The notes under the pieces are model-generated. The model was not told where the DNA came from. It saw only the letters and a program-made list of their open reading frames with translations, and did not search any database. 14,097 nt of DNA, from IMG/VR virus record IMGVR_UViG_2531839662_000021, positions 1 to 14,097 of that record. One strand, given 5' to 3'. Positions 7,041-14,097 of the stretch are shown in pieces; the first letter of the stretch is position 1, and each line of letters begins with the position of its first letter. Source of the DNA: a virus. Taxonomy: Duplodnaviria > Heunggongvirae > Uroviricota > Caudoviricetes. The translations under genes and the position numbers were made by a program.

Positions 7041-7567
7041 ACGCAATTGCCCGCCGTCTGCGGCTGCTGGTTGACCGTGCCGTTGTGCGCATGGTGTCTG
7101 ACAGTCTGGAGCGGCAGAACCTGCAAATCCAGACGCTGGCTGATGCCACCGACGACGACGTGGAACGCTTCCAGAACTACGGGTTTACTTCCGTTCCGCC
7201 GGAAGGTTCTGAAGCCATCGTGCTGGCCGTGGGCGGACGGCGTGACGGGCTGGTTGCCATCGCGGTGGAGGACAAGCGATGTCGCCCGAAAGGCCTGTCC
7301 CCCGGTGATGTCCGGCTGTATCACCAGGACGGTAAATCGCATATCACGTTAAAGAAAGGCGGAATTATTGAAATCACAGGAGAACAATTAAACGTTTCAG
7401 GGAAAACGGTAAATCTCACCGCCGACGAATTGCTGAATATTATCGGTAAACAAATGAAATTCGTCGGTCCCTGTGAATTTACTGCAGATGCCACAATCAA
7501 CGGTAAATCTTTCATCAAACACATTCATAAGGACGGCGACAATGAGAAGACATCACCGCCCATATGA
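7031..7567 (+). CDS. baseplate central spike / assembly protein V (Mu gp45-like)
   Basis: 178-aa ORF overlapping the hub gene by 10 nt; size and position match gpV-like spike proteins. Confidence 0.7.
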   Translation: MGLNAIARRLRLLVDRAVVRMVSDSLERQNLQIQTLADATDDDVERFQNYGFTSVPPEGSEAIVLAVGGRRDGLVAIAVEDKRCRPKGLSPGDVRLYHQDGKSHITLKKGGIIEITGEQLNVSGKTVNLTADELLNIIGKQMKFVGPCEFTADATINGKSFIKHIHKDGDNEKTSPPI

Positions 7568-9654: not shown

Positions 9655-10542
9655 ATGTTTCATGTGGATAATCCGACGGGTGTGCCAGTGATGCCACCTG
9701 TCGCGGCTGAATTAAGCAAAACAACGCTTTATTTCACCGAAGGCGGGAACGGTATTCCGCCCACTTATCCGGGGCCGGACTGGTTTAATATTATTCAGTC
9801 TGAATTACTGAAAATTCTCGAAGAAGCCGGAATAACACCGGATAAAGCAGATACCGGTCAGATAATGGCAGCGCTGAAAAAACTGTTTATTACGAACAGT
9901 GGTTCAGCTGGTGCCATTGCCGGATTAACCGGTCAGAATAATACGTTCCCGTACTTTACGGGCGAAGACACAATGGCATTAACGCCGCTCAGTGCTTTTG
10001 TGCGCGGTATTCTCGGGAAAAACACAGCCGGTGAAATTATCGACGCGCTTTTATTACGTGACACGGTAAATAAAGCTAATAGTGCTGTACCGAATACCCG
10101 CAGGGTCAACGGCATGGCTCTGTCTTCGGATATCACCATCAGCAACATCAGCGGCAACGCCGGAACGGCAACCCGACTTCAGACGGCCCGCAGGATTAAC
10201 AATGTGCTGTTTGATGGCAGCCGCGATATCACGATTTCTGCGGGAATGTCACAAACTGAAGGTGACAACCGTTACCAGCAAAAAAACACGGCGTCAAAAG
10301 CCGGTAATGGCTGGTTTAAGGACACGTCCACCGGGGTGATTATTCAGTGGGGGTATCTCGGCAATGCCAGTGCCGGGCTGACGTTTCCGATATCATTTCC
10401 GTCAGCATGTACCAGCATCACTATTACCAACGCATACACCCGTGCTGATTACTCTATTTCCCTGAAATCGTTATCAGCAGCAGGTGCGACATTCAACAGC
10501 GAGAATAACGGCGTTATGTACTGGACAGCGATAGGGTATTAA
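9655..10542 (+). CDS. tail fibre protein (Mu S-like), module 1
   Basis: 295-aa ORF with GGAGAA RBS; directly follows the baseplate genes and is followed by an overlapping tail fibre assembly gene; more AT-rich than the upstream structural genes. Confidence 0.75.
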   Translation: MFHVDNPTGVPVMPPVAAELSKTTLYFTEGGNGIPPTYPGPDWFNIIQSELLKILEEAGITPDKADTGQIMAALKKLFITNSGSAGAIAGLTGQNNTFPYFTGEDTMALTPLSAFVRGILGKNTAGEIIDALLLRDTVNKANSAVPNTRRVNGMALSSDITISNISGNAGTATRLQTARRINNVLFDGSRDITISAGMSQTEGDNRYQQKNTASKAGNGWFKDTSTGVIIQWGYLGNASAGLTFPISFPSACTSITITNAYTRADYSISLKSLSAAGATFNSENNGVMYWTAIGY

Positions 10543-10982: not shown

Positions 10983-12576
10983 AGGTGTGATTAAAACGCC
11001 CACGGGAGAACCGCTGGGCGGCGCAACCATTACATTGACCTCCCTGCACAACCGCGCAGGGATTCTGAAAAGTGTTTTCAGCCATGTCACCACACAGAAC
11101 GGGGAATATGACTTCCCCGTTCTGCCGGGTGTGTACAGCGTTCGCCTGACACAAAGCACACAGCGCCTTTCAGAAATCGGTGTCATCCGCGTTTATGAAG
11201 ATTCAGCGGACGGTTCGTTGAATGATTTTCTGGGTGCAACCGATATTGACCTGCGCCCGGAAGCCCTGAAGAAATTCGAAGAGCTGGCGCAACAGGCGCA
11301 GCAAAGCGCAGAAGCCGCAGCGGAAAGCGAGCGACAGGCCGGGCAACATGTCGCTGATGCGCAGAAGATAAAGAAAGACTGTCAGACGCTGGCGGATAAC
11401 GTACAGCAGAACGCAGAAGCCGTAGCGGCCAGCAAACAGCACGTTGAACAGCTGGCCTCAGAAGTTGAGCTGAACGCCGGGCAGGTGCAGCAGGGCGTGC
11501 AGAATGTTACTGATGCGGTAAAAAAGGCGCAGCAGGCAGCAAAGGATTCTGCTGACAGTGCCACAGATTCGAAAAACAGTGCTGACAATGCGGCACTGAG
11601 CGAACAGAACGCACAAAAACACGCGCAGAAAGCTGAACAACACGAGCAGCAGACTAAACAATATGCGCAGGATGCAGCGACCGCCGCAGAATCAGCAGAG
11701 AACGCCAAAGGCGAAATTGACGAAATTCTGGAAGGTGGCTATCTCAAGATAAAAAACAACTTTCAGGAAATTGTTGATGCTGGCCCGTCAGCACTGGCTC
11801 AGGCCCAATGGAATTTACAGATTTCCGGGGTGAAAAATAAACAGGTAATTGCCACCCCTTATACATGGCCATCCAGAACTGAGTATGAACAAAGGGTGCA
11901 TCTGCCACTCGCCGGGGCTTACGGATTTGGCTACACATTTGAAGACCAAAGCCAGGGGCGAATAAATTTTAATGAGGGCTATACGGCGTCGTGGTGGTCA
12001 CAGTGGGCGAAACCTGGTCGTTATTACGTCAGCGCCAGTGATAAAGAATACCTCGCACCTGAAGGAGAAAGGTGGGGGATTGTTGATTTGCTGTGGCTTA
12101 ATGGCAGCGGATATAACGATGCTTCGAAGGTTCTGAAGATACTGGCTTTTTACGACTCAGACGGGCACTTACACATAGGCAAGCGCGTTGGTCAGAGCGA
12201 CTGGTCAATAAGCTGGCGCAAGCTGGCATCGCTCTCTGATGTCAGGGCCATGCTGTATTCATATATTTATAATAATTACAACAGAGAATGGCGAGACCCG
12301 GAACTGGGAGGTTTAATTCTGGCGTCATACCAGGGAACCGCAGACGGCGACACAAATATAAAAGTATCCCGTGGTCAGACTTATCCCGGCTCGCGACTCG
12401 CTCCTGTGGCGATAGAATGCCAGTTCACCCCATCCGGCACGTATGCTGCAACACCGCGATTCTACATTACCGGCTGCAAGAGCAAATCACTCCCCGGAAC
12501 TTATATTTCATTGTCTGGCGCGCCAACAACATACAGCGACCAGGCATTTGTTGCGCTATTCATGAGGATTGTATGA
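10969..12576 (+). CDS. second tail fibre protein with distinct N-terminal domain, long Ala/Gln-rich coiled-coil stalk and C-terminal receptor-binding region
   Basis: 535-aa ORF; N-terminus (MPQLKGVIKTPTGEPLGGATITLTS...) resembles prophage tail-fibre N-terminal domains; residues about 100-250 are strongly Ala/Gln/Glu/Lys-rich; followed by its own Tfa gene. Confidence 0.75.
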   Translation: MPQLKGVIKTPTGEPLGGATITLTSLHNRAGILKSVFSHVTTQNGEYDFPVLPGVYSVRLTQSTQRLSEIGVIRVYEDSADGSLNDFLGATDIDLRPEALKKFEELAQQAQQSAEAAAESERQAGQHVADAQKIKKDCQTLADNVQQNAEAVAASKQHVEQLASEVELNAGQVQQGVQNVTDAVKKAQQAAKDSADSATDSKNSADNAALSEQNAQKHAQKAEQHEQQTKQYAQDAATAAESAENAKGEIDEILEGGYLKIKNNFQEIVDAGPSALAQAQWNLQISGVKNKQVIATPYTWPSRTEYEQRVHLPLAGAYGFGYTFEDQSQGRINFNEGYTASWWSQWAKPGRYYVSASDKEYLAPEGERWGIVDLLWLNGSGYNDASKVLKILAFYDSDGHLHIGKRVGQSDWSISWRKLASLSDVRAMLYSYIYNNYNREWRDPELGGLILASYQGTADGDTNIKVSRGQTYPGSRLAPVAIECQFTPSGTYAATPRFYITGCKSKSLPGTYISLSGAPTTYSDQAFVALFMRIV

Positions 12577-13142
12577 TGCAGATTAAAGAAATCACCAGCC
12601 CCCGTTATACCGAATCCGGTGCGATTGACTGCGACGTTCTGTTTGAGGAAATGGAAGCCCCTGTTCCCTACACTGCCACGCCGGACGATACAGCGAAAAC
12701 CGGTCAGCAAATCTGGCAGGAACTGCAAAGCGGAAAATGGGGTGAAATAACCCCGTTTGCCGTCACGCCGGAACTTATCGCAGCGGCGAAGGATGCCAAA
12801 AAACGGGAGATTGAGGCATGGCGCACAGAACAGGAGGCGCAGCCATTCACGTTCGAATGGAACGGTCGTACCTGGAATGCTGGTCCCGATTCGATGGCTC
12901 GCATTGCGCCCGTGGCAATGGCCGCAAAAGTGGCAGGTGCACGGGCAACGCTGGGGTGGGGGGATGCAGCAAACAGCCTTGTCACCATGACAATGGCGCA
13001 GCTTCAGGAGCTGGCAGCAACAATGGCGCAGGCGCAAACCGAGCGCAATACTGTGATTTATCGTCGTCAGCGTGAGATGAAAGAGCAGCTTTCCCTGTTG
13101 ACCACACTGAACGAAATAAGAGCATTCACACCCGGCGATTAA
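12573..13142 (+). CDS. tail fibre assembly chaperone (Tfa), module 2
   Basis: 189-aa ORF starting at ATGATG with GAGG RBS and ATGA overlap with the fibre stop. The longer ORF from 12288 in the track is a junk-like upstream extension. Confidence 0.7.
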   Translation: MMQIKEITSPRYTESGAIDCDVLFEEMEAPVPYTATPDDTAKTGQQIWQELQSGKWGEITPFAVTPELIAAAKDAKKREIEAWRTEQEAQPFTFEWNGRTWNAGPDSMARIAPVAMAAKVAGARATLGWGDAANSLVTMTMAQLQELAATMAQAQTERNTVIYRRQREMKEQLSLLTTLNEIRAFTPGD

Positions 13143-13265
13143 ATAATCATTTTGTATAGTTTATGACGATCGATAACATCATATCGATCGTCGGTTTGCA
13201 TCATATGTGATTAAATACCCCCAGCCCTCCGGGCGGTCATGTCTGGTTATTACACAGGGGGAATC
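13143..13265 (+). promoter_or_regulatory. mom-operon control region (Pmom-like): perfect 11-bp inverted repeat carrying two GATC Dam sites, G+C-rich element, com RBS
   Basis: GACGATCGATA (13165-13175) and TATCGATCGTC (13182-13192) are exact reverse complements separated by 6 bp; GATC at 13168-13171 and 13186-13189. Downstream ATACCCCCAGCCCTCCGGGCGG and AGGGGG RBS precede the com ATG. In Mu, Pmom is controlled by Dam methylation of upstream GATC sites and by the C activator. Confidence 0.55.
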
Positions 13266-13451
13266 ATGGACTCTGTTCGCTGTAAAAACTGCAATAAATT
13301 ACTGTTTAAAGGAGGTTTTAAGCATATAGAAATTAAATGCCCTCGCTGTAAACGTTACATTGTCATATCGAATGCCAAAGAGCATCCCACGGAGCTGTAT
13401 TGTGGGAAAAGAGAAGAAATCACGCATTCTGACAAAACCCTGCGTTATTGA
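13266..13451 (+). CDS. com: Com, zinc-finger translational activator of mom
   Basis: 61-aa product [33 protein letters not shown]...HSDKTLRY with CxxC...CxxC zinc-finger spacing, closely resembling Mu Com as I remember it; AGGGGG RBS 6 nt upstream of ATG; 3' end overlaps mom. Confidence 0.85.
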
Positions 13452-14097
13452 GTATGAAGGTCGTATTGTCGGCTATGGTTCAAAGGAGCTACGTGTTGAA
13501 ACCATATCCTGCTGGCTGGCCCGCACAATCATTCAGACAAAACACTATTCCCGCCGTTTTGTGAATAACTCCTACCTGCATCTTGGCGTATTCAGCGGAC
13601 GTGATCTGGTTGGCGTTCTTCAGTGGGGATATGCCCTTAACCCCAACTCAGGGCGTCGGGTCGTGCTTGAAACGGATAACCGGGGCTATATGGAACTGAA
13701 CCGCATGTGGCTACACGACGACATGCCCCGCAACTCTGAATCACGGGCTATCAGCTACGCGCTGAAAGTTATCAGGTTACTGTATCCGTCAGTTGAGTGG
13801 GTTCAGTCTTTTGCAGACGAACGCTGCGGACGTGCTGGCGTGGTATATCAGGCGTCGAATTTTGATTTTATTGGTAGCCATGAAAGCACGTTCTACGAGC
13901 TGGACGGCGAGTGGTATCACGAGATAGCGATGAACGCGATTAAGCGCGGAGGGCAACGAGGCGAGTATTTGCGGGCTAATAAGGAGCGGGCCGTGGTACA
14001 CAAATTTAATCAGTATCGCTACATCAGGTTCCTGAACAAGCGCGCAAAAAAGCGCCTAAACACCAAGCTATTCAGGATTCAGCCATACCCGAAGTGA
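13402..14097 (+). CDS. mom: Mom DNA modification protein (adenine modification, anti-restriction)
   Basis: ORF in a different frame overlapping the com 3' end and running to the window end (stop 14095-14097). GTG at 13402 is preceded by GGAG (13391-13394) and gives 231 aa, the length I recall for Mu Mom. An in-frame ATG at 13372 (241 aa) is an alternative start. Confidence 0.8.

Follow-up and report, generated by a model that had tools for sequence, protein, structure and literature searches.

The 14,097-nucleotide stretch of viral DNA analysed here, referred to throughout as the window, carries a com-mom operon at its downstream end, and the genes around this operon are of Mu type and encode head, tail, baseplate and tail-fibre functions. 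The element with which this account is mainly concerned (13372–13407) forms part of the com-mom mRNA and is located in the 3′ portion of com, within codons 36–48, where it overlaps the start of mom; it comprises a putative Com-binding hairpin and, sharing one base with it, a proposed translation inhibition structure (TIS). The individual features and the basis on which each was assigned are collected in Table 1.

Table 1 Features of the com-mom junction, in window coordinates.
Feature	Coordinates	Strand	Basis
com, 61 aa zinc-ribbon translational activator	13266–13451	+	Pfam PF10122 Zn_ribbon_Com; homology to Mu; same coordinates in RefSeq for E. coli UMNF18
Putative Com-binding hairpin, AUGC (13372–13375) / GCAU (13382–13385), 6-nt loop CAAAGA	13372–13385	+	Aligns with the Mu Com target
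Upstream in-frame ATG	13372–13374	+	mom start in RefSeq/PGAP, D108 and SfMu records; doubles as 5′ arm of the Com hairpin
TIS (translation inhibition structure), 6-bp stem UCCCAC/GUGGGA with 11-nt loop	13385–13407	+	Folding; identity with Mu; comparative pairing
mom Shine-Dalgarno sequence GGAG	13391–13394	+	5′ end of the TIS loop; homologous Mu GGAG annotated as ribosome_binding_site of Mu_53 (mom) in AF083977
mom GUG start	13402–13404	+	First three bases of the TIS 3′ arm; start in AF083977 and PMC6483171
mom, 231 aa + stop, DNA adenine hypermodification enzyme	13402–14097	+	Pfam PF25680 Mom; homology to Mu

Against its Pfam family the com product scores 30.5 bits (cut-off 22.9), and in a tblastn comparison it shares 72.6% identity with Mu Com across 61 aa; the mom product scores 254.5 bits, with residues 29–231 covered, and is 97% identical to Mu Mom. 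A search of NCBIfam returned no model for either Com or Mom. The com reading frame is also open from an ATG further upstream, at 13239, from which a version of 70 aa would result; the start at 13266 is favoured on the basis of the alignment with Mu Com, the presence of GGGGGA 5 nt upstream, and the PGAP annotation.

At the nucleotide level, the segment 13276–14097 is approximately 89% identical to Mu, D108, SfMu and the Mu-like phages of Yersinia, while E. coli UMNF18 has a Mu-like prophage that matches 13100–13500 with 100% identity. Over its full length the window is not collinear with UMNF18 (L177), there being 6284 position mismatches, which reflect indels upstream, and the gene coordinates of the two match only from about 9 kb onward. 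The UMNF18 copy contains a truncated tail-sheath gene and three frameshifted genes, and, given that the closest sequenced copy of the com-mom module thus resides in a prophage with several frameshifted genes, it may be that the module is not in active use.

Upstream of the operon the resemblance to Mu is lost. The similarity to Mu, D108 and SfMu starts only at 13276, which is inside com, and the leader and promoter region of com (13143–13275) is unrelated to that of Mu. The gene preceding com (12576–13142) is a DUF4376 tail-fibre-associated gene, while in Mu this place is occupied by the gin invertase; as it is the DUF4376 gene rather than gin that precedes com, there is no apparent invertible G segment at this end. 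No sigma-70 consensus promoter was found in 13100–13500. The intergenic region upstream of com does contain, at 13165–13192, a perfect inverted repeat with arms of 11 bp (GACGATCGATA/TATCGATCGTC) separated by 6 nt, and this repeat holds two GATC sites (at 13168 and 13186) in a window from which GATC is otherwise strongly depleted (15 sites, against 52.5 ± 6.7 expected). By analogy, a GATC-containing repeat in this position recalls the control of Mu Pmom, which is sensitive to Dam methylation and depends on an activator, the sequence of the repeat not being homologous to that found in Mu.

Turning to the element itself, the first-pass annotation had proposed that a hairpin within com sequesters the GTG start codon of mom and presents the Shine-Dalgarno (SD) sequence in its loop. 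The two arms, TCCCAC (13385–13390) and GTGGGA (13402–13407), are indeed 100% complementary at exactly the coordinates given for them, and the loop that separates them is, as claimed, 11 nt long (GGAGCTGTATT). The part of the proposal that concerns the SD requires a minor refinement: GGAG does lie at the 5′ end of the loop, with a spacing of 7 nt to the GTG, but its first two G residues are partly drawn into G·U extensions of the stem (13391:13401, with a pair probability of 0.80, and 13392:13400, with 0.46, both in a 120-nt context). Folding of 13350–13420 also yields the hairpin, and for the shorter segment 13380–13412 it is the minimum-free-energy structure, at −9.3 kcal/mol (the energy of the isolated 6-bp hairpin being −7.7 kcal/mol). 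In the 120-nt context the five core pairs each have a probability of 0.98 and the outer U–A pair 0.86, and the probability that the GUG is unpaired in the predicted fold is 0.00.

Judged on thermodynamics alone, the hairpin is not exceptional, and the support that it gains in this way is weak. The z-score for 13380–13412 (33 nt) is −1.8, with 10 out of 200 shuffled sequences folding equally well, while that for the 71-nt fold of 13350–13420 is −0.67; in addition, perfect 6-bp hairpins with loops of 3–12 nt number 68 on the + strand of the window (39 ± 8.6 in dinucleotide shuffles). With z-scores as weak as these, and so many comparable hairpins, the bare structure is unremarkable; one other hairpin (7258–7281) even combines an SD-like loop with an ATG in its 3′ arm, in this case out of frame inside a baseplate gene. 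Nor is the predicted pairing of a start codon diagnostic, since the predictions show it also for two overlapping, coupled genes of the window (starts at 9655 and 10542). The significance of the hairpin lies rather in its position within a com-mom operon, in its homology to the TIS of Mu and in its comparative conservation. As regards the homology, the first-pass annotation was right to see an equivalent of the Mu structure, inasmuch as the stem, the GGAG and the GTG match the Mu TIS at every base, and it can be said with considerable confidence that the hairpin is the TIS of a com-mom operon of the phage Mu type.

The 120-nt fold also contains a long-range helix that encloses the TIS, in which GAAUGC (13370–13375) pairs with the perfectly complementary GCAUUC (13424–13429). 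This helix was considered as a possible part of the element but was left out of the model because it is not conserved (it is kept in the Mu sub-clade and missing in L004, in L116 and in the L059 clade), and it is probably incidental.

The comparative evidence derives from 176 loci with Mom relatives, gathered from genomes, viral contigs and metagenomes. The pattern [U/C]CCCA[C/U]–loop–GUGGG[A/G] is kept in 121 of these, corresponding to 28 distinct junction variants, and in the alignment of the 28 variants every cell of the TIS helix (100%) is paired; shifting the 3′ partners by 1–3 columns leaves 33–61% of cells paired, a figure that refers to all nine pairs of the test structure. Of the six stem pairs, four are invariant. 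The outer pair is U–A in 16 variants, C–G in 11, U–G in one and C–A in none, the closing pair is C–G in 27 and U–G in one, and between the fixed arms the loop varies in sequence and ranges in length from 11 to 20 nt. Such covariation as exists is carried by the outer pair, and the C–G state may have arisen through one or a few events within a single clade. A covariance model (R1), for which 23 relatives were used and window-type sequences left out, gave a single match in the window, at 13363–13419 (67.4 bits, E 3.4e-19), the next best hit scoring 8.4 bits. Rfam has no family for the element, and its sole match within 13100–13600 was a chance hit below threshold.

Directly 5′ of the TIS, the putative Com-binding hairpin aligns with the 19-mer Com target of Mu (GAAUGCCUGCGAGCAUC) and fits the motif CC(N)2-3GAG with a C–G closing pair that was obtained by SELEX (PMC6483171). 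The recognition motif reads CC-AAA-GAG (13375–13382), as compared with CC-UGC-GAG in Mu, so that only the N positions have changed, and U13385 is common to the two structures, being at once the last base of the Com hairpin and the first base of the TIS stem. In a purely thermodynamic fold of 120 nt this hairpin has a probability of about 0.01, as it is out-competed by the GAAUGC/GCAUUC helix described above. The replacement of UGC by AAA in the loop, taken together with a diverged Com, might mean that what is seen here is a specificity variant.

Among relatives, CC(N)2-3GAG is carried by 75 of 89 distinct junction segments, and in 59 of the 75 all three flanking stem pairs are formed, by means of 15 different stem sequences (these include AUGC/GCAU, GUGC/GCAU, ACGC/GCGU, GAGC/GCUC, GGGC/GCCC and GCGC/GCGC). 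It persists down to about 50% Mom identity, including in a Magnetospira MAG, and it is absent from all of the com-less mom loci (13/13). One com-linked locus, L090, also lacks the motif, and this may be a case of diverged Com specificity. At roughly 10–45 nt upstream of the mom ATG, L090 has an alternative hairpin (GUCUCCGA...UCGGAGAC), the 3′ arm of which contains the SD. In the window there is a further CC(N)3GAG (CCACGGAG, 13387–13394) extending over the TIS arm and the SD, which was evaluated as a possible second Com site and rejected, the sequence being absent from the C–G sub-clade; it is probably a mere result of GGAG following CCCAC.

The switch that these features would make up can be outlined as follows. 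On the late com-mom mRNA, the G+C-rich stem UCCCAC/GUGGGA would lock the weak GUG start of mom in a helix, while the G·U extensions would also take up part of the GGAG. With the GUG locked in the stem and the SD partly drawn in, 30S subunits could not initiate, and the toxic Mom protein would not be made. Com, translated from the same mRNA, would recognise the hairpin directly 5′ of the TIS (13372–13385, loop CC-AAA-GA, closed by C–G), and its binding would destabilise the TIS, thereby exposing the SD and the GUG and allowing mom to be translated. The structure, the homology to Mu, the conservation and covariation, and the GUG start are results of the present analysis; Com binding and the part played by the TIS rest on published studies of Mu, and that the same holds for this prophage is inferred.

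This outline depends on where mom actually starts, as two different codons have been annotated. If Mom were to start at ATG 13372, the hairpin would be part of the mom coding sequence and would have no control over initiation. Several observations speak for this: PGAP places the mom start of E. coli UMNF18 at 13372, the GenBank records of D108 and SfMu use the homologous ATG, and the reading frame in the window is open all the way from ATG 13372 to GTG 13402. However, the sequence upstream of ATG 13372 (ACATTGTCATATCGA) contains nothing resembling an SD, whereas the GTG has GGAG at a spacing of 7 nt. The ATG is also not conserved: its position is occupied by GTG in L034, L037, L038, L041 and L048, in three relatives an in-frame stop intervenes before the stem GTG (TAA at codon −5 in L004, TGA at −2 in L048, TAA at −2 in L006), and in L059, L070 and L072 a start codon is entirely missing upstream. 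Once the ATG has been lost, as in L056, PGAP itself picks the stem GTG, which is the only start codon shared by all 28 variants of the near clade. In the curated Mu record AF083977 the homologous GTG is annotated as the start of mom and the homologous GGAG as its ribosome-binding site, and a GUG start is likewise given in PMC6483171. To this may be added that the Mom N-terminus differs among relatives and that the Mom model of Pfam covers the protein only from residue 29 onwards, leaving the N-terminus without family-wide protein constraint. Sequence evidence of this kind supports the stem GTG, as the first-pass annotation had proposed, over ATG 13372, which is probably not the real start; initiation at the ATG, with the hairpin lying inside the gene, appears very unlikely, and the comparisons indicate that annotations which use it over-extend mom by 10 codons.

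Even with the GUG accepted as the start, one might suppose that the inverted repeat is simply a by-product of two overlapping frames (HPT...CGK in com and M-G-K in mom) and has no function at the RNA level. The 3′ arm is certainly dual-coding, in com and in mom, the 5′ arm codes for EHPT, a conserved motif of Com, and, with four of the six pairs invariant, most of the conservation could in principle be driven by protein. The codon usage argues otherwise. The protein sequence places no demand on the third base of the 5′-arm Pro codon, yet the codon is CCC in 42/42 distinct com variants, while an equally invariant Pro in the zinc knuckle (CPRC), which serves as a control, uses all four codons (CCG 25, CCT 12, CCA 3, CCC 2); the 5′ arm is therefore constrained at the nucleotide level, and not by the protein alone. 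The Thr codon that has its third base in the loop is freely variable among com variants. The synonymous third base of the His codon (U or C), moreover, changes together with its partner (A or G), as is apparent from the counts for the outer pair given above (16 U–A and 11 C–G, with a single U–G and no C–A). On the opposite side of the helix, the Mom N-terminus is not conserved in the family, and, since it lies outside any family-wide constraint, Mom function does not explain the conservation of GUGGGR. Distant com-mom operons, with different sequences, still have hairpins over the SD or the start codon, and published probing and binding work on the Mu stem, which is identical to that of the window, supports a function (PMC6483171). 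Taken together, these points make an accidental origin of the repeat exceedingly improbable.

It could also be argued that the hairpin is functional but is opened mainly by the ribosomes that translate com, in other words by translational coupling, with Com binding contributing little or nothing. The TIS lies inside the com ORF, the end of which is downstream at 13451, so every ribosome translating com must unwind it, and coupling of overlapping genes is common elsewhere in the window (the starts at 9655 and 10542 being examples). Against this, Com is reported to act in trans on mom fusions, in studies attributed to Hattman in 1987 and Wulczyn in 1989. The Com-target hairpin and its motif are, furthermore, conserved, covarying and co-occurring with com, which argues for a protein–RNA interaction, and binding of Com to Mu RNA is direct and specific for both sequence and structure (PMC6483171). 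Coupling as the main means of opening is accordingly regarded as unlikely, although it could add to activation by Com.

Beyond the near relatives, com-mom operons with 50–57% Mom identity have hairpins that are unrelated in sequence and yet are found in the same place, over the SD and/or the start codon. Helices that cover the SD in such distant operons include CCUC/GAGG and CUCCUUU/AAAGGAG, while in L157, L165, L175 and L174 a long helix pairing with the start codon has the Com motif itself as its 5′ arm. In an arrangement of this kind Com would be a direct competitor of the inhibitory helix, and would not act by destabilising a helix next to its binding site. Rfam has no family that covers these distant com-mom elements. 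It is possible, though we put it forward tentatively and would not call it probable, that the combination of a Com hairpin with a start-site hairpin is a widespread modular riboregulator of proteobacterial com-mom operons that has been rebuilt several times.

A number of separate observations were made on the distant loci. Two tandem Com-type hairpins with CC(N)2-3GAG loops are found some 30–100 nt upstream of the Mom match in L157, L165, L174/L160, L175, L151 and L153, and the second of the two motifs forms the 5′ arm of a start-codon helix of 9–10 bp (e.g. GGCCACAGAG/CUCUGUGGCC and GGCCAUGGA/UCCAUGGCC). A com-less group (L085, L067, L088 and L062) has a GATC-rich, near-perfect palindrome of about 66 nt, situated immediately before mom, approximately 20–90 nt upstream. 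Among the other mom homologues without com, L143 and L144 have the start of mom about 20 nt after what appears to be the 3′ end of a tRNA gene (GGTTCAAATCC / GGTTCGAATCC ... CCA), and in the Aeromonas lambdoid phage pAEv1818 mom follows the antiterminator Q gene. When the predicted accessibility of the SD and start was crudely compared between com-linked (n = 74) and com-less (n = 14) loci, no difference was found (Mann–Whitney p = 0.61), the start assignment for distant loci in this comparison being heuristic; the com-less Aeromonas lambdoid group likewise pairs its TTG start of mom.

What emerges is an element that is already known, namely the com-mom translational switch of Mu, present here in a Mu-like E. 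coli prophage, and no new biology is involved. There are nonetheless some practical consequences. For the RefSeq/PGAP, D108 and SfMu records there is a case for moving the mom start from the ATG to the stem GUG, with the removal of 10 codons. The Com motif derived by SELEX is confirmed by natural variation, in that the N positions alone change. In engineered guide RNAs, the Com–RNA pair serves as a recruitment tag. Finally, the junction alignment collected here could seed an Rfam family for an element that does not have one.

For Mu itself, the TIS and the Com-binding hairpin are said to have been described by Wulczyn and Kahmann in 1991, by Hattman et al. in the same year, and by Hattman in 1999. 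In the published model the stem of the TIS holds the GUG start of mom and lies just 3′ of the Com-binding hairpin; Com binds a 19-mer hairpin with a six-base loop, the motif 5′-CC(N)2-3GAG-3′ and a C–G closing pair, and this binding is proposed to destabilise the TIS and so expose the translation start signals (PMC6483171). The statement in the first-pass annotation that Com of Mu binds just 5′ of a stem-loop that blocks mom is thus in agreement with that model.

Several known systems show some likeness to the element. One is HIV-1 TAR, the hexaloop of which also contains CC(N)2-3GAG, and in both systems recognition depends on sequence and structure (PMC6483171); TAR–Tat, however, controls transcription rather than translation, and the resemblance is an analogy without evolutionary relationship. 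In FluMu, where the gene concerned is hin1523 (an adenine methyltransferase), and in Pseudomonas phage B3, a DNA-modification gene directly follows one for a Com-like zinc-ribbon protein, and possible Com binding sites have been reported at the 5′ end of hin1523 (PMC3299994), but in both cases the gene downstream of the Com homologue is unrelated to mom. D108, SfMu, the Yersinia vB_YpM phages and the Mu-like prophages of Enterobacteriaceae all share the same element in the form [U/C]CCCA[C/U]...GUGGG[A/G]; their junctions differ in the length of the loop (11–20 nt) and the position of the SD, and one sub-clade has C–G rather than U–A as its outer pair. In Mu, the element has the position that it has in the window, with an identical UCCCAC/GUGGGA stem, GGAG and GUG start and a loop that is likewise 11 nt long, and the Com hairpin has the same AUGC/GCAU stem and CC(N)3GAG motif. 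The differences lie in four bases of the TIS loop (CUGU in the window, AAAC in Mu), in the N bases of the Com-hairpin loop (AAA in the window, UGC in Mu), in Com, which is only 72.6% identical, and in the unrelated region upstream of com, where the com gene of the window is not preceded by gin.
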